Positions 9,656 through 37,638 of a DNA stretch of 64,000 bases are shown here, one piece after another; the stretch's first letter is position 1; every line of letters starts with the position of its first letter. Below the pieces are notes generated by a model that was given only the letters and a program-made list of their open reading frames with translations, ran no database searches and had not been told where the DNA came from. A program made the translations under genes and the position numbers. This DNA is from an uncultured Candidatus Berkelbacteria bacterium (GTDB lineage Bacteria; Patescibacteriota; UBA1384; UBA12157; JAENIV01). The stretch lies in contig OY969116.1 of the NCBI GenBank assembly GCA_963698075.1, forward strand, positions 606,131-670,130. Reading direction: 5' to 3'.

Positions 9656-10411
9656 ATGTCGACGATGTTGAAGCCCCCGCAGTTCACCGAAGAAGAGGAG
9701 GAGCAGCTTGGCCGTGCCTTTGGCACGTCGACACTGCTCGAGAAGTTCATCGTCTCTGTCGCGATCCGGGTGATCGGTCTGTTGGCCGACGCATCCGACT
9801 GGCTCAAGGACCAGATCCGGACCGTGGTCGCCGAGATGTTCGGCGTAGCGGATCCGGCGCAAGCCCGCGGTGCTATCCAGTCTCTCGTCAACGAGGCCGT
9901 GGACAAGGCCATCGAGCCGCTGACCGAGCGCCTCAGGCGCCTTGAGGAAGCGGGACGACTGTCTGACGCCCCCGCCGGGCCACAGCGTGACCCCGAGATG
10001 GTACGCACCGAGATCATTCCCGGGATCGTCGTGGCCGTCATGAACGACCGTGCGTTCTTGGAGTCGCTCAGCTACGAAGAGGTCCAGGCGCTCACGATCA
10101 ACAGGGACTATGTCTCCTCTGAGTTTGTCCAGAGAATCTGGGATCACGAGATCCTCAGAGACCTCTGGGGCTCGGAGGAAGGCATGAGGGAGCGCCGGAT
10201 GGAGGCCGTGGCCAAGTTCATCGACGCCGAGATGGAGGCCATGGTGAGCGCCATGAAGAAGATTCTCAAGCGCTCCAAGGCGGCGCAGGAGAAGGCCAAC
10301 ATCGGCTGGGCGCAGTACCTCCTGGTCCACTTGGGGGTTGACCCCGCGGACACCAAGGCGGTTCGCACCGCCATGGGCAGGCAGCCCGAGTTGAAGGCCT
10401 ACCTCAAGTAG
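9656..10411 (+). CDS. Hypothetical protein (GC-rich cassette B)
   Basis: AAGGAGAG RBS. Acidic N-terminus and helical body; no motif recognised. High GC. Confidence 0.5.
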   Translation: MSTMLKPPQFTEEEEEQLGRAFGTSTLLEKFIVSVAIRVIGLLADASDWLKDQIRTVVAEMFGVADPAQARGAIQSLVNEAVDKAIEPLTERLRRLEEAGRLSDAPAGPQRDPEMVRTEIIPGIVVAVMNDRAFLESLSYEEVQALTINRDYVSSEFVQRIWDHEILRDLWGSEEGMRERRMEAVAKFIDAEMEAMVSAMKKILKRSKAAQEKANIGWAQYLLVHLGVDPADTKAVRTAMGRQPELKAYLK

Positions 10412-10505
10412 GCGCACGCACGGACATTCGGGGGCCCCGCCGCGCATGGCGGGGCCCGATTGTATCGTCTGACACGCTGAACCACACTCTACAACGGAGG
10501 TCATT

Positions 10506-11867
10506 ATGAGCGCAACCGCTGTCGAAAAACCGAATACGACACCGGAGCGTCGGGAGCGCAAGGACTTCACCACGCTCCTGACCACGGAGTTTGGTGGGCC
10601 AGTTAGGCTCACCTACAGGGAGTTCGACACCAGCGAGAGGGGCGTCAAGATGCGCCGCCTCGCTGGCAACCGCAGCCAGATCGCCAAGGCCCTGGACATT
10701 TCCGAGGACGACGTTCCTTGGATCTTCCCGGTGGCTTGCTGGATCCCGGAGTTGGGCGACACGGTCACGTGTTACGTCCGGCTCTCGTGGTCGGGCAAGA
10801 CGATCAATGCGGTCCCAACGCGCTGGTATGAACTTCAGCGCGTGGGTAAGTGGCAACCACAAAACGAGTTCAACGCCAACGAACTCGTCTTCGAGCAGCG
10901 CGGTAGGGGCTGGGCGACAACGACCAGGCCCTACGTCAAGATCTGGCGGGACTTCCAAGTCACGCCAGACGCTGACGGCAAGGTGCGCTTCGCACCCCGC
11001 ACTGTTGCAGTCCGGCGGGCCATGACTGCCACCTTCTGGATTGCTGGGGCACCGGAGCAGATCCGGAACCTCGGAGTCCGCGAGATCGATGTGTTCCTGG
11101 AACGGCCGGAGGAGCAGTACTCCTACGCCATCCAGGTTCCGATCCTCGGAAGATGGTACACCGCTATCGAACTCGTCGGGCTCACCCGGCTCGAGGCGGT
11201 GCTGGTGGACCTCGACAGCATCCAGAGCAATCTGGAGTCCATGATTTCCAGCGCCGAAGGCTGGGTCATGGACATCCTGCTGCCGACCATCCACCCGGCC
11301 AACATCAACAAGATGGGCCTACCTTCTGGTGCTCTGACTCTGGCCGACGAGGCTAGAAGCAACACCAACCGGCTGGTGGACTGGCTCCGGGGCTGGGCGA
11401 CTTGGGCCGTGGAAGACTTCCGCGCCAAGCGCCGCTCAGGTATCCGGGAAGCTGTCATTGCCATCCCTGAGCCCACCGGTCGCACCTCACGCCAGGACGC
11501 CCTCATGGAATGGAAAGCCGAGCAGATCATTACCCGGCTTGAAAGCCTGGCGGCGGGGACCAAGAAGCAGGAGAGGCCGGACGGCAAGACCAAGCGGCGG
11601 GGCAAGAAGGTTCCTGATGGGCCTAAGGATCGACGCGCTCAGCGCGGTAGGTCGGTGGCCGGCGCCGGGGACGACGTCGACAACTCGATCGGCAGCCGCG
11701 TGAACGGCGCTGATCGCGAGAGGCTCGCTAGGATGGCCAAGAAACCGTCCTTCCGCTACGTCGCCTGCGATGGATGCGGGAGCAAGCACAGGATGCCCCT
11801 GTCCTTCAAGGGCAATTCCGTCCCCCTGGCCAACTGCCCCAGACAGAAGAAAAAGGGCCGGAAGTAA
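10506..11867 (+). CDS. Hypothetical protein with C-terminal Cys cluster (GC-rich cassette B)
   Basis: ACGGAGGT RBS. 453 aa. The C-terminus has YVACDGCGSKHRMP...ANCPRQKKKGRK, which looks like a zinc ribbon plus a basic tail. Confidence 0.5.
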   Translation: MSATAVEKPNTTPERRERKDFTTLLTTEFGGPVRLTYREFDTSERGVKMRRLAGNRSQIAKALDISEDDVPWIFPVACWIPELGDTVTCYVRLSWSGKTINAVPTRWYELQRVGKWQPQNEFNANELVFEQRGRGWATTTRPYVKIWRDFQVTPDADGKVRFAPRTVAVRRAMTATFWIAGAPEQIRNLGVREIDVFLERPEEQYSYAIQVPILGRWYTAIELVGLTRLEAVLVDLDSIQSNLESMISSAEGWVMDILLPTIHPANINKMGLPSGALTLADEARSNTNRLVDWLRGWATWAVEDFRAKRRSGIREAVIAIPEPTGRTSRQDALMEWKAEQIITRLESLAAGTKKQERPDGKTKRRGKKVPDGPKDRRAQRGRSVAGAGDDVDNSIGSRVNGADRERLARMAKKPSFRYVACDGCGSKHRMPLSFKGNSVPLANCPRQKKKGRK

Positions 11868-11964
11868 TCCGGCCAAGTGCCGATCCCCAGCGGGCGGCTC
11901 GAAAGCCGCCCGCTGGATTCTGATTCACACGACACTCTGACGTCACAAGGAGAGAGTTACAACC

Positions 11965-13743
11965 ATGTCTAAGGTGATCGGAATTGATCTCGGTACCACC
12001 AACACGGTGGCTGCCGGAATCCAAGACGGAGAACCGGTGATTGTGCCCTCCGCAGCGGGCACATCAACGACACCTTCGATCGTCGCCTACGCTGACGGCA
12101 AGGTGCTTACGGGCTACACCGCCAAGCGCCAAGCCGTCATCAACCCGACTGGCACGGTGACCGGCATCAAGCGAATCATTGGTCGCCGATTCGATGAGGT
12201 GACGAGCGAACGCGAGACCGCGGCCTACCAGATCGTGGAAGGGCCGGACGGATTCGCGGCGGTCAAGATCGGCGAGACCGTCTTCATGCCAGAGGCGGTG
12301 ACCGCGCAGATCCTGACGACTGTCAAGCGTGCCGCCGAAAAGCACTTCGGCCAGGAAGTGAGCGAGGCGGTCATCACCATCCCCGCTTACTTCAACGACA
12401 CCCAGCGCACAGCTACCCGCAACGCGGGCGCGGTCGCCGGGTTGGATGTCAACATGACCTTTCACGAACCCACCGCCGCATGCATCGCCTACGGGTTCGG
12501 TAAGAAGGCCGTGCCCGAGACAATCCTCGTCTGGGATCTGGGTGGCGGAACATTCGACGTCTCCATCCTCGCCACCGGTGCCACCAACCAGGTGCTCGGT
12601 ACTTCCGGTGACTCGCACCTCGGGGGCAACGATTGGGATGATATCCTCGTTGCCTGGCTCATCAGCCAGATCAAAGAGGCCGGCGTCGACCCGACCGAGA
12701 ACCTCCAGTCACTCACGGCCATCCGCGAGCAGGCAGAGGCCGCCAAAATCGCCCTGTCGAGCGCGGAGACGGTCAAGATCAAACTGCCGTTCATCGGCAG
12801 CAGGAAGTCCGGCCGCCGAAGCGTTCCGGTCCACTTTACCGGGACGCTCACCCGAGAGCAACTCGAGGCCATGAGCGCCGAGCTGCTTGTGCGACTTCGG
12901 TCGCCGTTTAAGCAGGCGCTCAAGAACGCTTCCCTCAAGGTTGACGGCCTCGACGCCGTCATTCTGGTGGGAGGCGCCACCAACATGCCCATGGTCCAGC
13001 GCCTGGCGCGGGAACTCTGCGGCAAGGAACCGCGCACCGTTTCGCGCCTCGAAGAGATCGTGGCGCGGGGTGCGGCGATTCAGGCCGGGGCGTCGGCTCG
13101 AGAATTGGTGGCGCCCGCGCTCTTGGACATCACGCCTCTGTCACTGGGAGTACGCCGGGGCAAAGAGGGAATGGATGTTATCATCCCTCTGGGGACGCGC
13201 ATCCCAGCGACTTTCACCAAGCCCTACACCACGACGGCTAACGGCCAGACGGCCGTGGACATCGAGGTGTGGCAGGGCGAAAGCCCGATCGCCGGCAACA
13301 ACCACTTCCTGGGAAAGTTCACCCTCCCTGGCATTCCGCCGGCGCCCAAGGGCCGCACCAAGATTGATGTGACTTTCAGCATCGACTCCTCGGGCATCCT
13401 GTCGGTATCGGCGATCGACGCCGAATCCGGCAGGAAACGGGCGATCACGGTGACAGGCACGAGCCTGCCGCCGGAGACCATCCGCCGGATGCTCGCCGAG
13501 GCCGAGGCCAACGCCGAAGCCGACCGTCAGCGCCTCGAGGCCGAAGAGGCCAAAGAGGCACTCCGGCCCTTAGTGGCCGAGGCTGAGGAAGCTGCTACCA
13601 AGCTCGAGGGCAAAGAGCGCCAGGACTTCGAACTGGTGCTCGAGAATGGTCGCAAGGCCCTCGAGAGTTCCAACTCCGAGCAGGTCAAGTCTGCGACTGG
13701 CCTGCTCAAGACCGCTCTGGAAGGGACAAAGGCAACTGCCTGA
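11965..13743 (+). CDS. Hsp70/DnaK-family chaperone (divergent)
   Basis: IGIDLGTTNTVAA, ITIPAYFNDTQRTATRNAG and DLGGGTFDVSIL are the phosphate-1, connect-1 and phosphate-2 motifs of Hsp70. AAGGAGAG RBS. High GC. Confidence 0.8.
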   Translation: MSKVIGIDLGTTNTVAAGIQDGEPVIVPSAAGTSTTPSIVAYADGKVLTGYTAKRQAVINPTGTVTGIKRIIGRRFDEVTSERETAAYQIVEGPDGFAAVKIGETVFMPEAVTAQILTTVKRAAEKHFGQEVSEAVITIPAYFNDTQRTATRNAGAVAGLDVNMTFHEPTAACIAYGFGKKAVPETILVWDLGGGTFDVSILATGATNQVLGTSGDSHLGGNDWDDILVAWLISQIKEAGVDPTENLQSLTAIREQAEAAKIALSSAETVKIKLPFIGSRKSGRRSVPVHFTGTLTREQLEAMSAELLVRLRSPFKQALKNASLKVDGLDAVILVGGATNMPMVQRLARELCGKEPRTVSRLEEIVARGAAIQAGASARELVAPALLDITPLSLGVRRGKEGMDVIIPLGTRIPATFTKPYTTTANGQTAVDIEVWQGESPIAGNNHFLGKFTLPGIPPAPKGRTKIDVTFSIDSSGILSVSAIDAESGRKRAITVTGTSLPPETIRRMLAEAEANAEADRQRLEAEEAKEALRPLVAEAEEAATKLEGKERQDFELVLENGRKALESSNSEQVKSATGLLKTALEGTKATA

Positions 13744-13913
13744 GTCCCTCATGAGCACGCCTATCAGAACCCCCGGTCACCCGACCGGGGGTTCTTCATA
13801 TCCAAGGCATTGACATTTATCTTGCCTTCTGGTATACTATTTGAGACGCAATTGAGTAACAGCCCGAGCCAAAGAACAAATTGCGCGCACATTCACAAGG
13901 AGCGCCAGTGACC

Positions 13914-15590
13914 ATGTATCGTGATAATCAGCCCCCTGAACTTGTTGCCACTCTTACCTTCAAGCCCGGCGATCCGTCAAAGGATTCACGACTGGTCACG
14001 TATTATGACAGCAAGACCGTCATCCCCTGCACTCGTTGCCGACATTGCGGCTTTGGTGAGTGGGAAGCCACTCTCGAGCCCGGCAAGGAATACCCGGTGA
14101 TTCTGGAGGAACGTCAGAGGCGCCAAGGAACAGCAATCATCGTCTCCTACGTCGCCCATGCCTGGATCCCCAAGCAGGTATCACCATTCTGGCAACAAAT
14201 CGTCGCCCCGATTGAGACGATTGAGATCGGCTCCACTGGTCTTGAGATTGTCTTTTTGGGCGGCATGGCCGAGGCTGGCTCGCGGGCCTGTGCCCTCATT
14301 ATCTACAAGGGTCATGCCCTCCTGGTCGACTGTGGGATTAACGTTGCCTCTCTTTCTAGAGGGGAGACGCTTGCCTCCCACGAGATTGACCTCGAGGACT
14401 ATGAATCCTTGGCCAGGATGAAGGAACTCCCGGATTTTCCCATTCTCACCCACTTCCTGGAGTCAAGAGAGATCCAGCTGGTCGGGATTCTGGTGACCCA
14501 TAGCCACTTAGACCATTACGGTGGACTGGTGGCCCTCAAGTCCATTCTGGGTGAGCTGATGCCTCAGATCTACGGTACCCAGTTTACCCGCTCGATGATC
14601 AGCCATTACTGCTCTGACCGCGGTTTCCCTTATCCAAGGCTTGAACCGATTACTCCGGGAACCGAAACCGCCATCGGACCGTTTCGCATCCTGCCGTTTG
14701 GGGTTCCTCATGCGGTGATGGATGCTCTTGGCTACTCCATTGGGGTTGAAGGCGAACCTTCCCGCGTGGTGTTCTCGGGCGATCTCAAGGCCCACTACCG
14801 AACGCCCCGTGATATCTTTACCTTCACCGAGGCCCTCAAAGGCCTCCCGCCAACCAAAGCCCTGGTACTTGACTCAACCAACGCCAGCGTGCCTGGTCTT
14901 TCCGGGCTCGAGGATGAGGTTGAACAGGGGATGATCGAAATCCTCAGCCGCGCACCGGGCCGAGTGATTGTCACCTTCTTTTCAACCCGCTTCGATCGGC
15001 TCCAGATGCTCGTGGAACTGGGCGCCCTTTTCGGCAAGGAAGTCGGTGTCTGGGGTGCGAGTTTCAAGCCCACGCTTGAAGCCGCCAGAAATCGCGGTCT
15101 GTACTTTTCCAACCTTGCCGAGGATAAGGTATTCGAATGCGACATCATCGCGGTTACCGGCTGTCAGGCCAATGATACTTCTGTCGCCTGGCGCCTGGCC
15201 CTAGGCGAGCGGTGCGGTGGCATCAGCCTTCGGCCTGACGATACCTTCGTCCTTTCGGCGGTGCCAATCCCGGGCCGGATTACTCCGGTCCGGATGATGC
15301 TCGAAAACTGCCTGAACATCACTGGATCCGAGGTCTGGGTAGACCACTACACCAAGAGGGCGCCCGTGGGTTGCCGCAAAACCCGCACTCACGTGTCTGG
15401 TCACGGCTTCCAGGAGGACATCCGGATTATCTTCGAAAGTCTCCAGCCAGAGTACGTCATCCCGTACCACGCCTCTCTGCCGGCGATGGTTGACCTCGCT
15501 GATCTCGTCACTTCCCCCAACACTCGCCACTGTCTTGATCCGAGCCGAGTTATCCTCTTTGAGGACAACGGCGGCACTATCGTTCTCTAG
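13914..15590 (+). CDS. Metallo-beta-lactamase / beta-CASP RNase J-like hydrolase
   Basis: HSHLDH (the HxHxDH motif of MBL enzymes) and THVSGHGFQEDI (an RNase J-like H-x-SGH motif). Start taken at ATG 13914 after CAAGGAGCG. High GC. Confidence 0.65.
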   Translation: MYRDNQPPELVATLTFKPGDPSKDSRLVTYYDSKTVIPCTRCRHCGFGEWEATLEPGKEYPVILEERQRRQGTAIIVSYVAHAWIPKQVSPFWQQIVAPIETIEIGSTGLEIVFLGGMAEAGSRACALIIYKGHALLVDCGINVASLSRGETLASHEIDLEDYESLARMKELPDFPILTHFLESREIQLVGILVTHSHLDHYGGLVALKSILGELMPQIYGTQFTRSMISHYCSDRGFPYPRLEPITPGTETAIGPFRILPFGVPHAVMDALGYSIGVEGEPSRVVFSGDLKAHYRTPRDIFTFTEALKGLPPTKALVLDSTNASVPGLSGLEDEVEQGMIEILSRAPGRVIVTFFSTRFDRLQMLVELGALFGKEVGVWGASFKPTLEAARNRGLYFSNLAEDKVFECDIIAVTGCQANDTSVAWRLALGERCGGISLRPDDTFVLSAVPIPGRITPVRMMLENCLNITGSEVWVDHYTKRAPVGCRKTRTHVSGHGFQEDIRIIFESLQPEYVIPYHASLPAMVDLADLVTSPNTRHCLDPSRVILFEDNGGTIVL

Positions 15591-16730: not shown

Positions 16731-17396
16731 TTGCCCAAAATGAAGGAAAATAGCATTTTAGCCGTCACTTCCAAAATTATCGCCATTGCCGAAAATCGGG
16801 TGGTACCCATCGGCAAAATTGATAAAAAAGCCCTCGTCGAAAAAGAAGCTGATTTATTTATTCCTCAAGATAAAAACAAATACGGCTTCACGATTACCAT
16901 AAAAGGTAGTCTGCTCATTCCTTCGGCTGGCATCGATGAATCCAATGGCAACGGTTATTATATTCTCTGGCCGAGTGACCCGCAAAAATGGGCCAATAAA
17001 ATTAGAAATTATCTTAAAAAACGTTTTGGTCTCCAAAATATCGGCGTCATCATCACTGACAGCAAAACTACCCCACTCAGATGGGGCACCACCGGCGTCA
17101 TGCTGGCCCACGCCGGCTTTAAAGCCTTAAAGAATTACATCAATGAGCCGGACATTTTCGGCCGGCCCTTGCAAGTCACCAAGGCCAACGTTGCCGATGC
17201 TTTAGCGGCTGCGGCGGTGCTCTCCATGGGCGAAGGCAATGAACAAACTCCTCTGGCGATTATAAGCGAGGTGCCTTTTGTAAATTTTCAAAAAAACAAT
17301 CCTTCTAAAAGAGAACTTTCAGGCTTAGCCATCTCGCTTGAAGACGACATCTACGGTAGCATTCTCGGCGCCGTAAAATGGAAAAGATCTAAATAA
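16731..17396 (+). CDS. CofE-like F420-0:gamma-glutamyl ligase family protein
   Basis: N-terminal AVTSKIIAIAENRV resembles the CofE SSKVVSKAEGR region. 221 aa. The gene is flanked by duplicated Nif3 3' ends. Confidence 0.5.
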   Translation: MPKMKENSILAVTSKIIAIAENRVVPIGKIDKKALVEKEADLFIPQDKNKYGFTITIKGSLLIPSAGIDESNGNGYYILWPSDPQKWANKIRNYLKKRFGLQNIGVIITDSKTTPLRWGTTGVMLAHAGFKALKNYINEPDIFGRPLQVTKANVADALAAAAVLSMGEGNEQTPLAIISEVPFVNFQKNNPSKRELSGLAISLEDDIYGSILGAVKWKRSK

Positions 17397-17460
17397 ACTC
17401 GCTCAAAAAGGCATCAAAATCATCCCCGTTTCAGGTCTCATTAGAGTTCGCAGAAAATAA
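17393..17460 (+). repeat. Direct repeat copy 2 of the Nif3 3' end
   Basis: See copy 1. The differences are mostly synonymous or conservative. Confidence 0.7.
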
Positions 17461-18219
17461 TTATTTCTTTCGCCATAAAGTCCAAAAATCGAAACGTTCG
17501 ATTTCAGCGAGTTCTTTTGATTCAATCACAATCATATTAGTGGCGTTCTCTCTTATCGTCAAATAACAAATTTGATCTCTCCAAACCCATTTTTCCGCGT
17601 TCGCCCTCCAGGCATTTTTGTATGGTTTATACAAAATATGAGGGCGGCCAACTATTTCTCGATGTTTTTGGGCGGCTTTAGTATCAGGTAAAATCAAATA
17701 AGTTTTAACTCCCGTTTTATCGTTGAATGCCAAATATTTATCGTAGAACTCTTTATCCATCCCGTACCAATATTCCACATTCCCCGTGGACCAAATCAAA
17801 ATCTCATCACCTTTTTTAGCTCCTTTCATATATTGCCTGTACCACTCGCGCATCGCCAGAGGATTCTCATAAACAGTGATTAGAGGAATGGCTCGTTCGG
17901 CGGAGGCTTGAGATTTTAAAACTGGCATAATTTTGAGGACTTTTTCTTTATTTTTTTGGGCAATATCGGCCAAAATGTCTGGTTCAACGGCTTTGTAATA
18001 ATCCTTGTTGCCAAGGGCAATTTTCTTAATCAGACCCTTTCCCATCATCCCAGGCAATAAAAGATAAACCATCTGGCGGGTGTCGTCCATTTTTTGACCT
18101 AATTGGATGGCCGAAGCCGGACCGAGTTTTAGCGCTGTCAAATATAATCGCGCTTCATTTTTATGAAGGCCAATTGCTTCTAATAGATTATAGATTGCGT
18201 CATTGTTCATAGCTTGCAC
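17461..18219 (-). CDS. TrmB-family transcriptional regulator (paralog 1)
   Basis: The N-terminal wHTH contains EARLYLTALKLGPASAIQLGQ (TrmB signature is YLALLELG). The C-terminus ..IIESKELAEIERFDFWTLW is shared with three paralogs in this window. Confidence 0.7.
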   Translation of the reverse strand: MQAMNNDAIYNLLEAIGLHKNEARLYLTALKLGPASAIQLGQKMDDTRQMVYLLLPGMMGKGLIKKIALGNKDYYKAVEPDILADIAQKNKEKVLKIMPVLKSQASAERAIPLITVYENPLAMREWYRQYMKGAKKGDEILIWSTGNVEYWYGMDKEFYDKYLAFNDKTGVKTYLILPDTKAAQKHREIVGRPHILYKPYKNAWRANAEKWVWRDQICYLTIRENATNMIVIESKELAEIERFDFWTLWRKK

Positions 18220-18256
18220 CGAGCTTGTCGAGGTGTAAAATATTTTCTTTACATTA

Positions 18257-18331
18257 TTATATCATATTCTATTTTCAAGGTCAATACTCGTCGTATATAT
18301 ACTTGACATTCGAGCGATAATGTGATATAAT
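18257..18331. promoter_or_regulatory. Divergent consensus promoters between TrmB-1 and cassette C
   Basis: Minus strand: TTGACC-17-TATAAT. Plus strand: TTGACA (18303-18308)-17-TATAAT (18326-18331) with a TG extension. The plus leader contains the hairpin GATGGG..CCTGT-t-ACAGG..CCCATC. Confidence 0.55.
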
Positions 18332-18402
18332 CAGTTGTTCACGATGGGAGATGGCCTGTTACAGGTTAGCCCATCGGAACGAACCTTACAAGGAGCAAAT
18401 CA

Positions 18403-18669
18403 ATGAAACTGGGCTGGATTCTGATGACGCCGGCATTGGTATACATAGCAACGGGGATAATCTATGCCTTCACCCAGAAAAACCCTTTGCTAAATAGCCG
18501 ATTCTACTTCGGTTCCCTCTGGTTCCGCGATCTTCTGGAGAGATTGTTTCCAGGAAAGATCGATCCCAACAAAGATTGGAGGGCTGCTGTCTCTGTTCTG
18601 CTACTGCTAGCCATCTTTATGATGGCCTTTATCGGACTTCGACTACTACTCGATATGCAGGAAGGATAA
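18403..18669 (+). CDS. Small 2-TM membrane protein (GC-rich cassette C)
   Basis: AAGGAG RBS, two hydrophobic helices, 88 aa. Confidence 0.5.
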   Translation: MKLGWILMTPALVYIATGIIYAFTQKNPLLNSRFYFGSLWFRDLLERLFPGKIDPNKDWRAAVSVLLLLAIFMMAFIGLRLLLDMQEG

Positions 18670-18764
18670 TCATCCGCCCCTCGGTTCCCGAGGGGCGCAA
18701 CCTCGAGTTCCATTAGATACAGGGGTATCTAAAGGGATTGGAGAGTTAACAAAGGAGAAGACAC

Positions 18765-19292
18765 ATGTGGACCACAGGAGAACTGGTCGTTCTAGCCGTT
18801 GTAATATGGTTTCTCATCGGCGGCGTGATCATGTTCCGGATTGGCAATGGAACAGCCGCGCCATTCGCTGTATTTCCGTTCCTCTGCCTACTCTGGCCGC
18901 TGGTCCTGATCCTCCGCCGTTACAACAAGAGGTTCCGGAGGCTGTTGGAAGAGAGTACCTGGTTCAGGTGGCCACCTTTGTCTTGCGAATCTTGCCAACT
19001 CATGGGCGACACCGGCCCGAACGATAGGTGTGGAGAGAAGATGAGAAAAGATGAAGCGAAACTGGATCCTCGCAACAGGTGGAATCGCTGGCATCATGAT
19101 CGCCATCCTCGTGCCTCACATCCACAAGGTGGAGATCGCGCGAGCGTTGGCAGATGCCAAGGCGACCATGGCCCCTGTCTGGACGGTCGCCTCTGTAAGC
19201 CGGTTCACCTTCGAAGGCGACAGAAAGTACGAAACTGGCCTAGTCGTTCCGCATGGCTATGTTCGCCTCTGGATCAAGCCGGCCAACGGTGA
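18765..19292 (+). CDS. Small membrane protein; true 3' end uncertain (probably near 19050)
   Basis: AAAGGAG RBS. The first ~95 aa form two transmembrane helices. The rest of the ORF is Arg-rich low-complexity sequence that overlaps the next gene, which is likely a read-through of an open frame in GC-rich DNA. Confidence 0.35.
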   Translation: MWTTGELVVLAVVIWFLIGGVIMFRIGNGTAAPFAVFPFLCLLWPLVLILRRYNKRFRRLLEESTWFRWPPLSCESCQLMGDTGPNDRCGEKMRKDEAKLDPRNRWNRWHHDRHPRASHPQGGDRASVGRCQGDHGPCLDGRLCKPVHLRRRQKVRNWPSRSAWLCSPLDQAGQR

Positions 19293-19539
19293 GAAGTTTG
19301 AGGGGAAGGAAGCGTATCTGATCGTCGCGACCGGGGAAAGCCCCCAGCTCGAACAGTATCTCAAGGTCAAGCCTGGTGACCAGCTGTACTTCGTGCTCGA
19401 CCAAGAGAATCCCGATCATCTGTCAGGATGGGATTCCTTCGAGAAACTACGGCTCTGGATGGTCGTCCCCGAAGAGAAGCAGAAGGACTATCCAGGCGAC
19501 TTTCGCCAGCACCCGGAATACAGATTTCAGCGCTGGTAA
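19051..19539 (+). CDS. Membrane-anchored hypothetical protein (GC-rich cassette C)
   Basis: N-terminal transmembrane helix, then a soluble domain. 162 aa. Confidence 0.5.
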   Translation: MKRNWILATGGIAGIMIAILVPHIHKVEIARALADAKATMAPVWTVASVSRFTFEGDRKYETGLVVPHGYVRLWIKPANGEKFEGKEAYLIVATGESPQLEQYLKVKPGDQLYFVLDQENPDHLSGWDSFEKLRLWMVVPEEKQKDYPGDFRQHPEYRFQRW

Positions 19540-19574
19540 GAACCATGAGCCGACGGGCACACCGCACGAGTTCT

Positions 19575-19612
19575 GGCGGGGGCCAAAAGCCCCCGCCTTT
19601 TTGTTATTTTTT
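19575..19612 (+). terminator. Intrinsic terminator of cassette C
   Basis: GGCGGGGGC-caaaa-GCCCCCGCC followed by TTTTTGTTATTTTTT. Confidence 0.65.
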
Positions 19613-19638
19613 CTTTCCCCGGCGCTCTCTTTACCCCC

Positions 19639-20082
19639 TTATGGCCGCCAGAGTTTTTGCTGAGGGTTGTCTTGAACAATTTTATCCTCGACGACTTTAA
19701 AATACTCTTCAGCCGCATCAACTGCGTTCTTGGCTTCAGTCTTAACAACAGAAATCGGCTCGTAATAAACCTTATTTCTTTTGGTCGACATTCTGTTATA
19801 AATTGCCGTTAATGTATTAAATTTTACCCCTAAAACTGATTTGGCAAACTTTACCATTATTTTGTGGTGTCCTTTTCTAGACCCGGTACGATAACCCTTG
19901 GATAGCATTAAAGCTAAAGTGGTCGTGACTAATGAATCATAAGCTAATTTAAAAGCCGAGTCAGCGTCGCCGTCAATGAGTTTTTTAGCAGTTTGGTAAG
20001 TTTTTGCTGCTTTCTTTAAATAGTCGTTAATTTGTCTGAAGTTAACTGGCTGTCTTCTTAGTTTCGAAAAGTCGAAGCTCAT
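19639..20082 (-). CDS. HEPN-domain protein (toxin partner of MNT)
   Basis: 147 aa, helical, candidate Rx4-6H motif in RTGSRKGHH. It overlaps the upstream MNT gene by 41 nt. Confidence 0.55.
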   Translation of the reverse strand: MSFDFSKLRRQPVNFRQINDYLKKAAKTYQTAKKLIDGDADSAFKLAYDSLVTTTLALMLSKGYRTGSRKGHHKIMVKFAKSVLGVKFNTLTAIYNRMSTKRNKVYYEPISVVKTEAKNAVDAAEEYFKVVEDKIVQDNPQQKLWRP

Positions 20083-20689
20083 TTTCCCCTCCCTTGATAA
20101 AAATTAGTTTTCCATTAATCAGGTCATGAATATAAGTGTCTTCGTTTTTTAATTTTTCTTGAAACTCTTTCTCAAGCAATATATCAACATTAATTTCTCG
20201 CCCAAAGCGTTCGCTGAGTCTATCGATTCGATCGCTAATTTCCTCAAAAACTCTGTTATTCTTCTTGGCAATTACAAAGAGATCAATGTCACTCTCATTA
20301 TCAAGATTCCCCTTTGCGTAAGAGCCATAAATAAATGAAATGAGAATATTTTGATTAGGAATTATACAAGATCCCAGCAATTTAGGTATTCCGACAGTTT
20401 TGACAACAATATCTCGTAAAGAATTGTATATCGGGCTGTCTTTATCTAAAGAATAAAACTTGATATTTCCGACTTTCTCTGATTTGAGTACCCCAGCTTT
20501 TTCAAGATTAATGAGTTCTCGCCTAATATTTCCGATCGACACCTTGAGGATTCTTTCAAGCTCTCGCATATAAAAACGTTCCTTTGAACTAAGCATAAAC
20601 TGGACTAATAATTTAACTCGAGTTCGCGAGCGGAAAAAATTTAGTGGATTGGCTTTTTGTTCGTCTTGTTCCATAGCGTTGTAGTCCAT
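20042..20689 (-). CDS. wHTH-fused minimal nucleotidyltransferase (MNT, antitoxin-like)
   Basis: N-terminal ArsR-like wHTH (FYMRELERILKVSIGNIRRELINLEKAGVL). C-terminal nucleotidyltransferase fold GSYAKGNLDNESDIDLFVI (GS..D.D). Confidence 0.65.
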   Translation of the reverse strand: MDYNAMEQDEQKANPLNFFRSRTRVKLLVQFMLSSKERFYMRELERILKVSIGNIRRELINLEKAGVLKSEKVGNIKFYSLDKDSPIYNSLRDIVVKTVGIPKLLGSCIIPNQNILISFIYGSYAKGNLDNESDIDLFVIAKKNNRVFEEISDRIDRLSERFGREINVDILLEKEFQEKLKNEDTYIHDLINGKLIFIKGGENELRLFETKKTAS

Positions 20690-20727
20690 TCTGACTACAA
20701 TTGTAGTCCATTTTGACTACAAAATGC
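20684..20727. promoter_or_regulatory. Tandem 22-bp palindromic operator overlapping the MNT start codon
   Basis: Minus strand: TTGTAGTCAAAATGGACTACAA | TTGTAGTCAGAATGGACTACAA. Each unit is an inverted repeat TTGTAGTC-N6-GACTACAA, and the second unit contains ATG-GAC-TAC-AAC, the start of the MNT gene. Confidence 0.55.
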
Positions 20728-20789
20728 AATATTTCATTTAACCGCTTTCTTCAACTCCTCCACTTTATCCGTCTTCTCCCACGGCAAGT

Positions 20790-21530
20790 CTAAAAATTAC
20801 TCCATAGCGCCTCAAAAACTCTTCTTTCCGTTTCTGCGATATCTTGGGATTCGATAATGACGGTTGAAAGTTCTCTTTCGGAGGTAAAATAAGCCACTTT
20901 GTCGTGATAAATCAATTTATTTGCACTTACTTTAAAATCTGGGGGGAGAAATTTGATCTCTCTTAGTTCTTCTTTAGCGGTCTCCTTTAGGGTTTCGGAA
21001 AACTCATCTTTTAATACTAACTGGCGAAATTTAATCTTGCGCCTGATTCTGATAGGAATATATTTCTTTAAGATATATTTTTCGGAAATAACCTGATTTA
21101 AGATACTAACATCGCCAAAGTACAATACCTCGTGATTTGTACCCTCCAAACTCTCTTCAACGGCTTTCAGATAGCCCTCTTGACCCTTATAAAATCGCGT
21201 TGATGGCTCAAAAACTGCTTTTTTCTCAATGGCCTTGAGCTCTGGCAAAATATCTTTAATTTTGACGCTGATGTTCTCTAGTCTCGACAATAATTCCTCA
21301 GGTTTCCCGAGAGTATAGTGGGTGCCATATTTGGCCTTATATTGGCCCAAAATGCCCCGAAAAACGAGTTTTTCGGCAATAAGATAGATTGTTGTTCTTT
21401 TAATCCCTGTAGATAAGGAGATTTCCCTAACGGTGGCGCTTTTTGACCTCAAAAGAGCCAAATAGATTTTAATCTCATCATCTGTCAGTCCATAATCCGA
21501 CAGGGCTTTTTTGATGCTTATTTCCGCCAT
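20790..21530 (-). CDS. TrmB-family transcriptional regulator (paralog 2)
   Basis: DEIKIYLALLRSKSATVREISLSTGIKRTTIY wHTH. C-terminus IIESQDIAETERRVFEALW is paralogous to TrmB-1, -3 and -4. Confidence 0.7.
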   Translation of the reverse strand: MAEISIKKALSDYGLTDDEIKIYLALLRSKSATVREISLSTGIKRTTIYLIAEKLVFRGILGQYKAKYGTHYTLGKPEELLSRLENISVKIKDILPELKAIEKKAVFEPSTRFYKGQEGYLKAVEESLEGTNHEVLYFGDVSILNQVISEKYILKKYIPIRIRRKIKFRQLVLKDEFSETLKETAKEELREIKFLPPDFKVSANKLIYHDKVAYFTSERELSTVIIESQDIAETERRVFEALWSNF

Positions 21531-21571
21531 TTTTGGTCCCTTATTTTAGACGATATTTCTGACATCTATTT

Positions 21572-21652
21572 GATTATAAACCAGATTCTTACTTTTGTCA
21601 AGCATAAATTATTGTCATATATATTGACATTATATTCACATTGTGCTATAAT
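21572..21652. promoter_or_regulatory. Divergent consensus promoters between TrmB-2 and cassette D
   Basis: Plus strand: TTGACA (21624-21629)-17-TATAAT (21647-21652) with a TG extension. Minus strand: TTGACA-17-TATAAT upstream of TrmB-2. Confidence 0.55.
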
Positions 21653-21694
21653 CATGAGTTATGCGAAGAGAACCTTGACAAGGAGAAAAAGGCA

Positions 21695-22132
21695 ATGAAA
21701 CTCGTTCGGCTCGTTCGTTCGAAGCAGACTTTTCCGCTTCGGAAGAGCCCCTACTCAATTAGTGATTGGGTAGGGAGAATAGCGTCGCCGTACATGTCTT
21801 GCCCCGATGGTACCAGTATCGACAAGCTTGTGTTGTGTCCAGAGACTGGTCAGGCCGCGATTCTCGTGTCGTACGATGGTGAAAAATGTGAGTTGACCTA
21901 TGCCGGGAATACGCCAGAGAGAGCCGACCCCGGCCTAATAGCTTCGGCAAGAATGCCAGACGGTACACCTGTAAAAGGAGCGGGATTCTGTTTGCGGGCA
22001 CCTTGTATCATCTGTAGCCGGCCCAAATCCCGAAGTTGGACTTGGGTTTACCTCTGCGTCGAAGACAAAGAAAGGCGCAAGATACCTCTTCCTGTCCTAT
22101 CGTTTCTCGACGCGATCGGTCCTGGCGTGTGA
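21695..22132 (+). CDS. Cys-rich small protein, member 1 of a tandem paralog pair (GC-rich cassette D)
   Basis: ATG 21695 after AAGGAG. Shared motifs with its neighbour: CPDG..., TYAGNTPER, C..C SRPKSRSWTWVYLCVEDKERRK. Confidence 0.5.
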   Translation: MKLVRLVRSKQTFPLRKSPYSISDWVGRIASPYMSCPDGTSIDKLVLCPETGQAAILVSYDGEKCELTYAGNTPERADPGLIASARMPDGTPVKGAGFCLRAPCIICSRPKSRSWTWVYLCVEDKERRKIPLPVLSFLDAIGPGV

Positions 22133-22158
22133 AACCACAGGAGAAAAGGAGAAAGACG

Positions 22159-22584
22159 ATGAGAAACGGTACTGTGGTGAAGAAGGATAAGTACACTCTG
22201 AAGAGATGGCTGGACACCATCTACAAGAAAAGCACTTGCCCAGATGGGTCACCAATCACTCAATTTCGTCCCTGTGGTGACCATGGACAGGGATCGCTGG
22301 CCACCATCCTGATCAACGCCTGGTGCACAATCAAAGGGGCGATGGACGACCTTCGAGTAGATGTGACCTACGCCGGTAAGGCGCCTGAAAGAATCACGGA
22401 CGAGACAAGCGAGAGCCTCATCGCTGATTCCGTAATGGGTGTCTTCACGGAATTCAGGATGGACGGTAATAGCATAGTCTGTTCCCGGCAAAGGTTTGGT
22501 AACAACAAACCCATTGCTCATCATGTCTATATGTGTTTGACAAGAGATGAGTGGGAAAGACGCCGGGCGGGCATGAAGAGTTAG
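22159..22584 (+). CDS. Cys-rich small protein, member 2 of the tandem paralog pair
   Basis: ATG 22159 after AAAGGAG. CPDGSPI.., TYAGKAPER, CSRQRFGNNKPIAHHVYMCLTRDEWERRR align with member 1. Confidence 0.5.
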   Translation: MRNGTVVKKDKYTLKRWLDTIYKKSTCPDGSPITQFRPCGDHGQGSLATILINAWCTIKGAMDDLRVDVTYAGKAPERITDETSESLIADSVMGVFTEFRMDGNSIVCSRQRFGNNKPIAHHVYMCLTRDEWERRRAGMKS

Positions 22585-22606
22585 CAACCTTCCGAACGCC
22601 TACCGT

Positions 22607-22636
22607 GGGGCGCGCGAAAGCGCGCCCTTTTGTTTT
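22607..22636 (+). terminator. Intrinsic terminator of cassette D
   Basis: GGGGCGCGC-gaaa-GCGCGCCC followed by TTTTGTTTT. Confidence 0.65.
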
Positions 22637-22727
22637 AGCTTATTTCCCAACCGCCTTTTTGAGTTCTCTAATCTATAAATATAATAAAATTCTTGCGGTC
22701 GAAAAGAAATTATTATATCCTTCCTTA

Positions 22728-23915
22728 TTATTTAACAGCGGACTGAAGCTCTTTGACCTTATTATTTTTTTCCCATGGAAGATTAAGGTCCGGTCTCCCA
22801 AAATGTCCGTATGCCGCCACTTGGCGATATAAAGGACGGCGGAGATTGAGTTCTTTGATGATAATCCCCGGTCTTAAATCAAACACCTTTAATATCGCCT
22901 CTTCGATTTTGGATTCATCAACTTTGCCGGTGCCGAAAGTATCCACGCGGACCGACATCGGTTCCGGCCGGCCGATGGCGTAAGCAATCTGAATTTCAAC
23001 GCGGTCGGCAAGTCCGGCGGCAACAACATTCTTCGCCACCCAACGGGCGGCGTAAGAACCCGAGCGGTCAACTTTTGTCGGATCTTTGCCGGAAAAACAG
23101 CCGCCGCCGTGCCGCGCCGTGCCGCCGTAAGTATCAACAATTATTTTTCGTCCCGTTAAACCGGTATCGCCTTGCGGTCCGCCAATCACAAATCGGCCGG
23201 TGGTATTAACAAAATATTTGGTTTTTGCATCTAGATACTTAGCCGGAATCACTTTTTTAATCACCTGCTCAATAATATCTTTTTTCAGTTTTGCCAATTT
23301 GACTTCTGGCTCATGTTGGGCGGCAATGAGAACATTTTCGATCCTCGCTGGCTTATCATCGATATACTCTACCGTCACTTGCGATTTGCCGTCTGGCCGC
23401 AAGCCCTTGATAATTTTTTTCTTCCGGACTTCGGCTAATCGTTGACACAAGCGATGGGCTAAGACAATTGGCATTGGCATTAATTCTGGCGTTTCGCGGC
23501 AGGCAAAGCCAAACATCAAGCCTTGGTCGCCAGCGCCCAAATTTTCCAAATCTTCAGCCACAATTTCACCGGTTTTACCTTTTTCTTTAAATGAATCCAC
23601 CCCGCGGGCAATATCGGACGACTGTTCTTTAATCGCCACCGTCACGCCCGAGGTTTCCCAAGAAAAACCGCAATCACCATCCAAATATCCGATATCCTTG
23701 ATAACACCACGGGCAATTTTGGGAATATCAACATAAGTTTTGGTGGTAATTTCACCAGCAACAAAACAAATGCCGTTGGTGAGCAATGTTTCGCAAGCCA
23801 CCCGGCCGCGCGGATCGTCTTTTAAAATGGCGTCTAAAATGGCATCGGAAATTTGATCCGCCATTTTGTCCGGATGCCCTTCGGTCACTGACTCGGAAGT
23901 AAAAAGTTTTTTCAT
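22728..23915 (-). CDS. metK: S-adenosylmethionine synthetase
   Basis: [29 protein letters not shown]... is the canonical MetK N-terminus. The conserved glycine-rich loops are present. 395 aa. Confidence 0.9.
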
Positions 23916-24105
23916 AACCTTAGCTTAAATCATTTTTTACATTTTAATTTAACTTGCCCGAAAGTTCGTTGTCAAGGCCGCTTTTTTGCTCCATAGATTT
24001 GGTGCCTAAACTCGCCAACTATGATATAATAAAAATGTGAATTCTTAGGCGCATTACAATCTGAGATTTGCGTTGAATTTTTGAATATGAAGGAGGGTTT
24101 TTTAA

Positions 24106-24142
24106 ATGCAATTTAAAGTTCCCCAAAACATTGATTTGGAAG
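24106..24142 (+). pseudogene. Duplicated 5' fragment of the PrgI-like gene (first 12 codons)
   Basis: atgcaatttaaagttccccaaaacattgatttggaag differs at 6 of 37 nt from the true gene start at 24251. It has its own GAAGGAGG RBS and is out of frame with the real gene. Confidence 0.55.
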
Positions 24143-24250
24143 GCCCCGCAAAATTCCTTTCTGTTTACAGAATTACATTCTGTCACACAGAAGCGTCATC
24201 TGCGGGGCGAGACTCATTAGCATCGAAAACTATTATCAAGGAGGTAGGCG

Positions 24251-24658
24251 ATGCAGTTTAAGGTGCCCCAGAATATAGATTTGGAAGACAAAATTGTTGG
24301 ACCGCTGACTTTAATCCAGTTTTTGTATGTCCTTGGCGGCGGGGTGATTATCTATTTGCTCTATCTTTCTTTAAATATGCGCTTTCTTTTCTGGGTCCTC
24401 GCCATTCCTATTGGCATTATTGCGGCGTCCTTGGCATTTTTAAAAATCCAAGATCAACCTTTGTCGCATTTTATCAAGGCCGGCTTGATTTATTTAAGCC
24501 AGCCCAAGAAACGCCTCTGGCAACGGGCCGGTCTAGTCAAACCCGTGGTTTTTGCTGTCGCCAAAAAAGAAAAGAAAATCATTGCCCCGCCCAAAAGAAA
24601 AATTGAAAAAAGCGAATTAGAACAATTAGCCCAAATGCTGGACACCCGACGGGTGTAA
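24251..24658 (+). CDS. PrgI/VirB3-like small membrane protein of a T4SS
   Basis: 135 aa, two transmembrane helices, basic C-terminus. It lies immediately upstream of the VirB4-like genes, as in Gram-positive and CPR T4SS loci. Confidence 0.5.
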   Translation: MQFKVPQNIDLEDKIVGPLTLIQFLYVLGGGVIIYLLYLSLNMRFLFWVLAIPIGIIAASLAFLKIQDQPLSHFIKAGLIYLSQPKKRLWQRAGLVKPVVFAVAKKEKKIIAPPKRKIEKSELEQLAQMLDTRRV

Positions 24659-32568: not shown

Positions 32569-33657
32569 CTATTTTAACTCCACGATCCTCGCCTTTTCTC
32601 TTAAATTCTTTTCAATATGATCCAAGTCAGTCGTCGTAATAATCGTCTGTTGGCCCTCGACGATTTTGGCCAGATGCAGGCGCCGATTTTTATCCAACTC
32701 CGAAAAAATATCATCGAGCATGAACAATGGTCTTTCCTCTTTTTCGAGCGTTAAATATTCCAATTCCGCCATTTTTAACGCCAGCACCGCGCTTCTATAT
32801 TCGCCCCGCGAGCCAAAGGTGGTAATATCTTTTCCCTCCAGCAAAAACACCAAATCATCTCGATGCGGGCCGAACAAGGTGGCGGTGTAATCAATTTCTC
32901 TTTGGCGATGCGCGACGAGGGTCTCGGCAAATTTTTCCGGCACCACAGTGGGGTTATATTTTAACTCAAGGGTTTCCCCTGTCCCTGATATTTCTTGGTA
33001 TTTCTTGGTTAAACCCTGCCTGCCGGCAGGCAGGTCTTCATTAATTTTTGCCACTGTTTTTTGGCGTTTTTTGATAATAAAGCTTCCCAACGCCACCAGT
33101 TTTTCATCCCAAAAGGTGAGTTCCTCAATTTTGGAACGGCCGATCTTCAGAAAATAAAGAAGCTTATTACGGCCCCGAATAATTTTGGCCAAATCCAGAA
33201 GAGCCAGGGTATATTTTTTATCAATTTGGCAAAGAAGAATATCTAAAAAACGGCGCCTAAGCATTGGCGCCCCATCAATTAAATGAATCTCTTCGGGCGA
33301 AAATAGTACCTGCGGCAGTTTACCTAAAATTTCGGTCAATTTTTTCCGAACGCCGTTAATTTTAACTATTTTTGTCATGGGATATTTGGGATTGGGAATT
33401 TTCTGAATTAACATCGCCAGGCTTTCCTCTCTCTCGTTCCTCCTTTGCGCGGCAATCGAAGCCACTTCCGCTCCCCATTTTACTACTTCGTTATCATGAT
33501 TAGTGCGCCAAGAACGGCCGGTAGAAATTAAATAGATGGCCTCAATGATATTAGTTTTGCCAATGCCGTTGGGACCCACAAAAATCGTCGTTTTGCCAAA
33601 ATCAATTGAGTATTTTGAATAGTTACGGAAGTTGGTTAATTCAAGACGCTTTAACAT
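32569..33657 (-). CDS. recF: DNA replication and repair protein RecF
   Basis: MLKRLELTNFRNYSKYSIDFGKTTIFVGPNGIGKTNIIEAIYL (Walker A). Walker B LFMLDDIFSELD. Confidence 0.85.
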   Translation of the reverse strand: MLKRLELTNFRNYSKYSIDFGKTTIFVGPNGIGKTNIIEAIYLISTGRSWRTNHDNEVVKWGAEVASIAAQRRNEREESLAMLIQKIPNPKYPMTKIVKINGVRKKLTEILGKLPQVLFSPEEIHLIDGAPMLRRRFLDILLCQIDKKYTLALLDLAKIIRGRNKLLYFLKIGRSKIEELTFWDEKLVALGSFIIKKRQKTVAKINEDLPAGRQGLTKKYQEISGTGETLELKYNPTVVPEKFAETLVAHRQREIDYTATLFGPHRDDLVFLLEGKDITTFGSRGEYRSAVLALKMAELEYLTLEKEERPLFMLDDIFSELDKNRRLHLAKIVEGQQTIITTTDLDHIEKNLREKARIVELK

Positions 33658-33765
33658 AATTATCAATTTCCAAGCACCAATAACCATTCAATTTTTCAAA
33701 TGCCAAATATCAAATTGTAACATTGGAGCTTGGTTATTGATTGGTCATTGAGATTTGATCATTGG

Positions 33766-34872
33766 TTATTCCTCCATTCGGAGGGGCATGATAATATAGA
33801 GATAATTTTTATCTTTAGCAGGCCGAATCACGCCCGGGGAAAGCGGCCCCGCCAGTTCTAAATCGATTTTTTCCGAACTGATGACTTGAAGCGCGTCAAG
33901 AATAAATTTGGCGTTAAAAGCAATTTCAGTTTCATCGCCGGTAAAATTGCCTTCAAGATCAGAGGTGTTATCGCCGATTTGCGGCGAGACTGCCAAAACC
34001 TGGACCAGTTTGGGTTTTTTAATCACAATTTTTACATTATTAGCTGATTCTCTGGCAAAAAAACTGGCCATTTTAATCGCGTTGGCGAAATTAGCGGTCG
34101 AAATTTCGAGTTTTGTTTTAACGCTTGTGGGAATAATTTGTTCATAATCAGGGAAGCTGCCCTCGATTAATCGTGACATCACTTCTGTTGGTCCCAATTT
34201 AAATTGAACTTGATTTTCGCCGATTTTAATCAATACTTTTTCAATTGACTCGTCTATCAACCGGCCAATTTCCGCCAAAGGCCGGGCCGGAACAATAAAG
34301 TTTGCCGAAGAAGAATCCTTACTAATTAAATTGACTGTCTTTTCCGCTAAGCGGTAACTGTCAGTGGCCACTAATTTTAATTTATTGCCGGCTAAAACGT
34401 GATATATCCCTGCCAAAACCGGCCGGGTCTCATCAAGGGCACAAGCAAAAACCGTTTTTAAAATAGCATCGCGAAATTCCAAGGCCCCAATCTCAATTTC
34501 TTTACCTGCTTTAACCTCAGGAATCAGTGGAAACTCGCTCGCCTCAATTCCTTTGATATTGGCTTTAAAATGCTCGCTTGATAAATGCAAAGTCGCGTCT
34601 TTGAGTTCTAAATTAATCGTTTTATCGGTATTGGTGGTTGTAAACTCGGAAATTAATCTTGCCGGGCAGGTAACAGCACCGTCTTTATCAACTTTGGCGC
34701 CAATCCAGGTTGAAATACCAATTTCTAAATCGGTTGCCGCTAATTTCAACCGACCTTTTTCCGTTTTAATCAGGATATTATTAAGCACTGGTAAAGTCGT
34801 CCGCGTCCCTACCATATGAGAAACAATTCCCAACCCCCTAGCTAAATTCTCCTGGGTACATGAAACCTTCAT
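33766..34872 (-). CDS. dnaN: DNA polymerase III beta sliding clamp
   Basis: MKVSCTQENLARGLGIVSHMVGTRTTLPVLNNILIK..., 368 aa, three-domain clamp architecture. Confidence 0.85.
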   Translation of the reverse strand: MKVSCTQENLARGLGIVSHMVGTRTTLPVLNNILIKTEKGRLKLAATDLEIGISTWIGAKVDKDGAVTCPARLISEFTTTNTDKTINLELKDATLHLSSEHFKANIKGIEASEFPLIPEVKAGKEIEIGALEFRDAILKTVFACALDETRPVLAGIYHVLAGNKLKLVATDSYRLAEKTVNLISKDSSSANFIVPARPLAEIGRLIDESIEKVLIKIGENQVQFKLGPTEVMSRLIEGSFPDYEQIIPTSVKTKLEISTANFANAIKMASFFARESANNVKIVIKKPKLVQVLAVSPQIGDNTSDLEGNFTGDETEIAFNAKFILDALQVISSEKIDLELAGPLSPGVIRPAKDKNYLYIIMPLRMEE

Positions 34873-34896
34873 TTAAATTCCTTTCTCCCTCCACAA

Positions 34897-35146
34897 ATTA
34901 TCCACAGTTAGTCTCTTATTAAATCTTTGTTGATTAGATTTTAGTAATAATAATGTTTGTGGATCATGGGTATTAATAGATTGTTTGGGTTGTGGAAAGA
35001 CTGGGGATTTTCTTGTGGAAAACAGAAGTATTTTCAGTGGTAAAAATTAATAAACTTAATTTTGTCATATTATCTACTATATATATTAATACTCACAATT
35101 TAAGCAATAAATTAAATCCTCAAGTTATCCACAGCTTATCCACATG
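34897..35146. promoter_or_regulatory. oriC-type DnaA-box cluster (dnaA-dnaN intergenic region)
   Basis: TTATCCACA at 34908-34916, 35125-35133 and 35136-35144, plus variants TGTGGATCA and TTGTGGAAA. The region is AT-rich. Confidence 0.7.
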
Positions 35147-36475: not shown

Positions 36476-36630
36476 AACCAAACCTTTGGTTTGGAAATTC
36501 GAAATTCTCACTGCGGAAGCAAGGCATTTAATTCGAAATCCCAAACAAATTCTAAATCCTAATATTTAAATTCTTAATAATTCCTTAATTTTCGGATTTC
36601 GACATTCGTGCTTCGGATTTCCACGCAATC

Positions 36631-37515: not shown

Positions 37516-37564
37516 TTTCTCACCTCCCTTCATAACGGGTTGTACCTGATTTTCAGAACTTATG

Positions 37565-37638
37565 ATTATAACACAATCTGCCGAATTTGTCAAGTATTTT
37601 CGACTATATTTGACATCTTAGGTAATACCTGATATACT
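37565..37638. promoter_or_regulatory. Divergent consensus promoters between cassette E and TrmB-3
   Basis: Minus strand: TTGACA (37588-37593 rc)-17-TATAAT (37565-37570 rc) with TG extension. Plus strand: TTGACA 37610-37615, 17 nt, TATACT 37633-37638. Confidence 0.55.

Follow-up and report, generated by a model that had tools for sequence, protein, structure and literature searches.

Two adjacent small genes of an uncultured Candidatus Berkelbacteria bacterium, here called ORF A and ORF B, are genuine protein-coding genes that arose by an old tandem duplication, their similarity having been kept by selection on the proteins. Their layout is that of a single transcription unit, which faces a divergent gene for a TrmB-family winged-helix protein. 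The best explanation for the whole, to which we assign a probability of about 0.5, is a regulator-gated, lineage-specific accessory pair whose two products probably act together in the cytoplasm. As far as sequence searches reach, their orphan family is extremely rare, with only one member known besides these two, and it is new to every library searched. All coordinates refer to the window, namely the whole stretch of 64,000 nt of contig OY969116.1 that was analyzed, and the features of the locus are as follows.

20790-21530, minus strand: TrmB-family winged-helix regulator, 246 aa (Pfam PF01978, E=1.8e-12, 47.4 bits against a cutoff of 25.6)
21573-21601, minus strand: promoter of the regulator gene, TTGACA-17-TATAAT, 12/12 match to the sigma-70 consensus
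21620-21641, plus strand: 11-nt tandem direct repeat, TATATTGACAT / TATATTCACAT, overlapping the -35 element and the spacer of the ORF A/B promoter
21624-21652, plus strand: promoter of ORF A/B, TTGACA-17-TATAAT, 12/12 match to the sigma-70 consensus, with an extended -10 TG
21681-21686, plus strand: AAGGAG ribosome-binding site of ORF A, 8 nt ahead of the ATG at 21695, read from the sequence
21695-22132, plus strand: ORF A, 145 aa, 7 Cys, pI 9.0, about 16 kDa
22146-22151, plus strand: AAGGAG ribosome-binding site of ORF B, 7 nt ahead of the ATG at 22159, read from the sequence
22159-22584, plus strand: ORF B, 141 aa, 5 Cys, pI 9.0, about 16 kDa, paralog of ORF A
22607-22636, plus strand: intrinsic terminator after ORF B, with a 9-bp GC-rich stem, a GAAA loop and a T-run

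ORF A and ORF B are anciently duplicated paralogs

An earlier sequence-only reading of this DNA had described the two ORFs as tandem paralogs, each with its own AAGGAG site and with a common series of motifs. Direct reading confirmed the coordinates of both ORFs and both sites, and the motifs CPDG, TYAG(N/K)(T/A)PER, CSR and VY(L/M)C...ERR are present in both proteins in the same order. The genes are separated by 26 nt. BLASTP aligned the two proteins over nearly their whole length (about 139 columns) with 28% identity (42.4 bits, E=1e-10), and their Smith-Waterman score of 100 lies 15 standard deviations above that of 2000 shuffles (mean 27.2, sd 4.8, maximum 59), which places the paralogy far beyond chance.

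The detectable similarity at the DNA level is one 29-nt stretch alone. In a codon-by-codon alignment, the identity was 0.47, 0.57 and 0.35 at codon positions 1, 2 and 3, respectively, and 21 of the 41 residues identical between the two proteins are encoded by different codons. Therefore, the codon-position identities, the different codons and the single DNA match together indicate that the duplication is old and that selection has acted at the protein level.

The sequence of ORF A is recorded in NCBI/ENA (P0001) on a 929,420-bp contig, and that of ORF B comes from a Logan assembly only (P0002). In the NCBI/ENA protein set of this 929-kb contig ORF A is present and ORF B is missing, the latter being recorded only as a Logan gene call; ORF B was probably missing or differently called in the deposited annotation.

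The family has three known members

The sequence-only reading had recognized no known family in the pair, and searches of Pfam, NCBIfam, PHROG, PADLOC and the PDB sequences bore this out. No Pfam family matched at E<=10, NCBIfam gave only TruD at 14.7 bits against a cutoff of 654, the sole PHROG match had E=0.33, PADLOC gave no match, and among the PDB sequences, searched by hmmsearch with the A2 profile, only HisF appeared, with a sub-threshold E=0.013 and no passing stretch.

An exhaustive HMMER search of 1.84 billion cluster representatives with a profile of ORF A and ORF B returned the two proteins themselves, one further protein, P0005 (E=2.7e-4), and two artefacts, P0003 (1259 aa) and P0004 (537 aa), which are tandem-repeat proteins in which many weak repeat matches were summed. 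In word-indexed searches, ORF A alone found only itself among 5.8e9 proteins, and a three-sequence profile found only ORF A, ORF B and P0005 among 5.8 billion clusters. No relative was found by back-translated pattern scans in the GTDB genomes, IMG/VR and the JGI metagenomes, and no match to ORF A or ORF B by tblastn in the phage and plasmid collections.

P0005 (130 aa) aligns with ORF B over the full length (E=1e-10) and with ORF A over the N-terminal half of the latter (E=1e-7), and it retains the PDG, YAGNxPxR and VYxC motifs together with two cysteines. Its contig, of 1.1 kb and 30% G+C, carries no visible second copy or partner of P0005, and the gene is divergent from that of a winged-helix regulator. 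The family is thereby tied to a divergent winged-helix regulator in both organisms where it is found, the local regulator being of the TrmB family (PF01978) beside ORF A/B and of the Lrp/AsnC type beside P0005.

The pair is laid out as one transcription unit

One consensus promoter, two Shine-Dalgarno sites and one terminator give ORF A and ORF B the layout of a single transcription unit. Its promoter and that of the regulator gene stand back to back, 22 bp apart, and in the whole window 12 promoter matches with at most one mismatch were found against 0.41 expected by chance. The tandem repeat of TATATTGACAT and TATATTCACAT may be regarded as a candidate operator. The RNA fold of the strong terminator after ORF B has an energy of -22 kcal/mol (z=-2.4). 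An independent Logan assembly (L002, run ERR10755944) matches the window at positions 21415-22702 base for base (100%), and therefore the G+C junctions between the regulator gene and the ORFs are not an artefact of a single assembly.

The term cassette, under which the sequence-only reading had placed the pair, fits only loosely. An integron gene cassette is a promoterless ORF with an attC recombination site behind it, standing in an array beside intI. The ORF A/B unit resembles such cassettes in being small, compositionally distinct, lineage-specific and discrete, but differs from them in having its own promoter, regulator and terminator and no flanking attC-like repeats. No attC-like inverted repeat occurs repeatedly in 17000-24300, no tyrosine or integron integrase is present among the window ORFs scanned, and the only recombinase, of the large serine type, lies 20 kb off at 43232-44593. 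Hence an integron cassette is excluded by the 12/12 promoter, the intrinsic terminator and the missing attC-like repeats and integrase. Convincing att-like repeats flanking the unit were not found either.

The proteins are cysteine-enriched, soluble and predicted to share a fold

Cysteines make up 4.8% of ORF A (n=7, at 36, 48, 65, 99, 104, 107 and 121) and 3.5% of ORF B (n=5, at 27, 39, 56, 108 and 126), which is a 4-6 fold enrichment over the background of 0.8% in 22 long ORFs of the window. The earlier count of 8-9 cysteines per protein was accordingly too high, although the description as Cys-rich holds. Four cysteines align between the paralogs (36, 48, 107 and 121 in ORF A with 27, 39, 108 and 126 in ORF B), all of them shared as single cysteines and not as CxxC knuckles, and ORF A has in addition a C-x4-C-x2-C cluster at 99/104/107 and no histidine. 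P0005 keeps two of the four shared cysteines, namely the xCP and the VYxC cysteine; the other two are absent, with APDG in place of CPDG and LVFV at the position of the CSR cysteine.

Neither a signal peptide nor a membrane segment was found in ORF A or ORF B by the hydropathy test. The maximum of the Kyte-Doolittle 12-residue mean within the first 35 positions of the sliding frame is 0.38 for ORF A and -0.32 for ORF B, and the overall maxima, 1.8 for both, lie away from the N-terminus. The suggestion that the proteins are secreted is not sustained by these profiles, which show no hydrophobic N-terminus and no membrane segment.

AlphaFold2 models built on the three-sequence alignment predict, with moderate confidence, that ORF A and ORF B share one beta-rich alpha+beta fold. 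The model of ORF A has a pLDDT of 74.1 and a pTM of 0.71 (pLDDT at least 70 in four of the five models) and that of ORF B a pLDDT of 71.0 and a pTM of 0.69 (one of the five models confident), and in both the elements are ordered as strand, helix, three strands, short helix, three strands and C-terminal helix. Foldseek gave no significant match, the best E being 0.045 for model A and 0.044 for model B in the PDB and 0.034 in BFVD, with TM<=0.37. The models, being mostly beta (7 strands) with short helices, have a likeness to Ig-like, cupredoxin-like and chagasin-like beta-sandwiches, and the weak top matches include Ig domains, VirB9, cytochrome c oxidase subunit II and inhibitors of the ICP/chagasin family. 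However, these matches have E>=0.03 and TM<=0.37 and are of different types for models A and B, and the ligand pattern of a cupredoxin copper site is absent from both proteins, with ORF A having no histidine at all. A likeness to Ig, cupredoxin, chagasin or the p53 core was therefore rejected as too weak and inconsistent between the models, and the weak beta-sandwich resemblance of the predicted folds provides no evidence for membership.

The regulator belongs to one of four similar modules

The TrmB-family protein encoded at 20790-21530 is the presumed local regulator of ORF A/B. The C-terminal two-thirds of this protein match no Pfam sensor domain, nor was the sugar-binding C-terminal domain of TrmB detected. 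The window holds four TrmB-like paralogs, of which the other three are 20-29% identical to this regulator, and each belongs to a module.

17461-19597: module with the TrmB-like gene at 17461-18219, minus strand
20790-22636: module of ORF A/B, with the TrmB-like gene at 20790-21530, minus strand
37147-38461: module with the TrmB-like gene at 37697-38461, plus strand
38536-40856: module with the TrmB-like gene at 40098-40856, plus strand

In every module the gene of a TrmB-like regulator (about 250 aa) is divergent from small genes that have higher G+C and no family match, and two near-consensus sigma-70 promoters stand back to back. One cargo protein outside the pair was searched, the largest of the neighbouring module (19051-19539), and it is also an orphan. 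The module cargo also comprises small membrane proteins (18403-19539) together with a zinc-ribbon-like ORF of 66 aa (38536-38736, minus strand). A G+C-rich hairpin lies behind the cargo in three of the four modules; the terminator scan covered two of these hairpins, at 19575-19597 and, behind ORF B, at 22607-22628.

Relatives of the regulator are common in Patescibacteria, where they were confirmed in 320 stretches, and at 56 of the 67 Patescibacteria loci examined a divergent upstream gene faces the regulator relative. These facing genes often encode glutamine synthetase in Peribacteria, and elsewhere radical SAM enzymes, pentapeptide-repeat proteins, and unassigned or orphan ORFs. Beside 80 TrmB-like regulators of other Patescibacteria no ORF A/B homolog was found. 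In several other Patescibacteria genomes (L005, L013, L018, L022, L029 and L059) the divergent gene likewise exceeds the TrmB-like regulator gene by 9-15 G+C points, for instance with 0.59 against 0.44 in L013. The pattern of a regulator plus G+C-rich cargo may be general in Patescibacteria. A literature search for TrmB together with Patescibacteria or the candidate phyla radiation found nothing.

The back-to-back position of the regulator gene and ORF A/B is that of a divergent winged-helix regulator with its target operon, and such an arrangement, a local regulator with a divergent operon of lineage-specific small proteins, is familiar. ORF A and ORF B nevertheless differ from the targets of TrmB-type regulator systems in being orphans instead of genes of sugar or nitrogen metabolism.

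Composition and neighbourhood of the unit

The G+C content is 0.53 in ORF A, 0.51 in ORF B and 0.38 in the regulator gene, and GC3 is 0.53 in ORF A and 0.60 in ORF B against 0.33-0.47 in the neighbours. The genome is compositionally mosaic, with GC3 of about 0.8 in a block around DnaK; given this mosaic and the moderate excess, the raised G+C is weak evidence for recent transfer. The DnaK block (9656-15590) comprises two unassigned ORFs, Hsp70/DnaK (11965-13743) and RNase J, with GC of 0.57-0.63 and GC3 of 0.66-0.86, and a 23-kb Logan contig (L163) has the same gene order over this block and its low-G+C flanks. The ORF at 5962-6936 reaches a GC of 0.66, most of the window being at 0.3-0.5.

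No homolog of ORF A/B or of the TrmB gene was found near metK in contigs whose MetK is 57-75% identical, nor an ORF A/B homolog beside 80 metK loci. No insertion borders could be drawn by synteny because the nearest contigs (MetK 68-75% identical) are rearranged.

On the regulator side of the unit lies a HEPN/nucleotidyltransferase (MNT) gene pair, and on the other side of ORF A/B metK, on the opposite strand, followed by type IV secretion-like genes.

19639-20082: HEPN gene, matching PADLOC candidate defence system PDC-M05
20042-20689: nucleotidyltransferase (MNT) gene, matching PDC-M05

The pair matches PDC-M05 in PADLOC with E=1.1e-45 for its component A and E=1e-15 for its component B, and it separates the two modules found at 17-22 kb. 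The start of the MNT gene is overlapped by two 22-nt palindromic repeats in tandem (20679-20722), a likely operator. The genes for a PrgI-family protein and a VirB4/TraG-like ATPase begin at 24251, about 1.7 kb from ORF A/B. The first 37 nt of the PrgI-family gene (24251-24287) are repeated with 84% identity 145 bp upstream (24106-24142), where they open a 51-aa ORF; this repeat may be a duplication remnant at the 5' end of the gene.

Proposed role of the pair and alternatives

We propose that the TrmB-like protein could repress or gate the strong promoter so that ORF A and ORF B would be made only under a particular signal, as the gene arrangement suggests. The two soluble, basic paralogs probably cooperate in the cytoplasm, where a hetero-oligomer would be the simplest form. 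The unit itself may be a horizontally acquired, lineage-specific accessory module, one of four TrmB-plus-cargo modules, and would as such serve no core function. The cysteines common to both proteins, four in number, may build a metal site of structural kind that the family can do without.

Several other explanations were weighed against this regulator-gated accessory pair. The flat GC1/GC2/GC3 profile of ORF A and the record of ORF B from Logan gene calls only, outside the NCBI/ENA protein set, could indicate chance open frames in a G+C-richer stretch. But the similarity at the protein level extends over three sequences from two organisms of very different G+C, the third codon positions have diverged most between ORF A and ORF B, and ribosome-binding sites, promoter and terminator are all correctly placed; the non-gene reading is refuted by the conservation of the proteins, and we give it next to no probability. 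The cysteines raise the question of a metal-binding (Cys4 zinc or iron-sulfur) or redox role for these small proteins, with the four shared cysteines binding a needed metal. Cys4 zinc-binding domains, such as zinc ribbons and treble clefs, have four family-conserved ligands, typically in two CxxC-like knuckles. The 4-6 fold enrichment, the alignment of four cysteines between the paralogs and the additional cluster in ORF A speak for this function, against which stand the replacement of two of the four in P0005, the lack of histidine in ORF A, and the lack of any Pfam metal-binding domain even at E<=10. The metal-binding role put forward by the sequence-only reading is thus weakened by the third family member, and we consider a metal or redox role possible but doubtful.

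The setting of the genes could instead point to a conflict module that would serve anti-phage defence or host interaction or work as a toxin-like pair, silenced by the TrmB-like repressor within a small defence or variable island. The HEPN/MNT pair directly adjoins as another small two-gene accessory unit, the strong consensus promoter and the dedicated regulator suggest conditional expression, and the genes are orphans of raised G+C that are not syntenic in relatives. The likeness to the HEPN/MNT pair is nonetheless one of neighbourhood only, since ORF A and ORF B resemble neither HEPN nor MNT proteins in sequence and have no PADLOC match; moreover, PHROG gave nothing below E=0.33, no phage or plasmid homolog was found, no nuclease, NTPase or other effector domain was detected, and it would be unusual for a toxin-antitoxin pair to consist of two paralogs. 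Type II toxin-antitoxin systems consist of two unrelated small proteins, usually with overlapping genes and autoregulation. A pair of this type was rejected for ORF A and ORF B, which are homologous to each other and lie 26 nt apart, with P0005 having no visible partner and regulation appearing to come from a separate TrmB-like gene. Overall, we judge a conflict module unlikely. It is clearly improbable that the two proteins are secreted or translocated effectors, for instance substrates of the nearby PrgI/VirB4-type machinery: type IV secretion-like genes do lie close by, and small Cys-rich proteins are often extracellular, but both proteins have neither signal peptide nor membrane segment, the opposite-strand metK intervenes, a promoter and a terminator of their own set the two genes apart as a transcription unit, and the sole relative sharing the VirB4 neighbourhood (L086) has no ORF A/B homolog. 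A more far-reaching proposal, which we think quite unlikely, is that ORF A and ORF B found a new fold and family and represent an undescribed class of repressor-locked, acquired orphan modules in candidate-phyla-radiation bacteria that would serve conflict or host-interaction functions of episymbionts.

Orphan genes make up a large share of the small candidate-phyla-radiation genomes, in which orphan paralogs are common and transcription factors very few, and to our knowledge almost no orphan genes of these bacteria have been characterised. ORF A and ORF B offer a clean case for study, combining protein-level selection, duplication, a moderately confident predicted fold without known relative, expression signals and a dedicated regulator. 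Their present standing is that of a hypothetical-protein pair, a curiosity more than a breakthrough, which opens no new biological question and would leave a specialist unsurprised; some value comes from the recurrence of orphan modules under putative TrmB control and from a fold, predicted with moderate confidence, for which no relative could be detected. If TrmB-gated modules were a general way of keeping acquired genes tightly controlled, they would provide a handle on both the regulation and the accessory functions of these bacteria.

Other features of the window

Further features were assigned beyond the neighbourhood of ORF A/B.

32569-36544, minus strand: stretch holding putative recF (372 aa) and putative dnaN (368 aa), both likely and assigned by position only
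35147-36544, minus strand: dnaA, Pfam-confirmed
41673-42506: yidC, Pfam-confirmed, within the stretch 41673-42958
42959-43048: tRNA-Ser(CGA), followed by the serine recombinase at 43232-44593
44756-44881: LOOT RNA (RF03000, 74 bits)
46144-47214: reverse transcriptase, within the stretch 42959-57767

The stretch at 42959-57767 looks like an integrated mobile element; it also encodes AAA_5 and VWA proteins as well as two N4/N6 DNA methylases, of which one has a ParB-N domain, and its reverse transcriptase may be part of a retron or of a diversity-generating element. From recF, dnaN and dnaA with yidC nearby, the window appears to lie at the region of the chromosomal replication origin, and two of the TrmB modules are located between dnaA and yidC.
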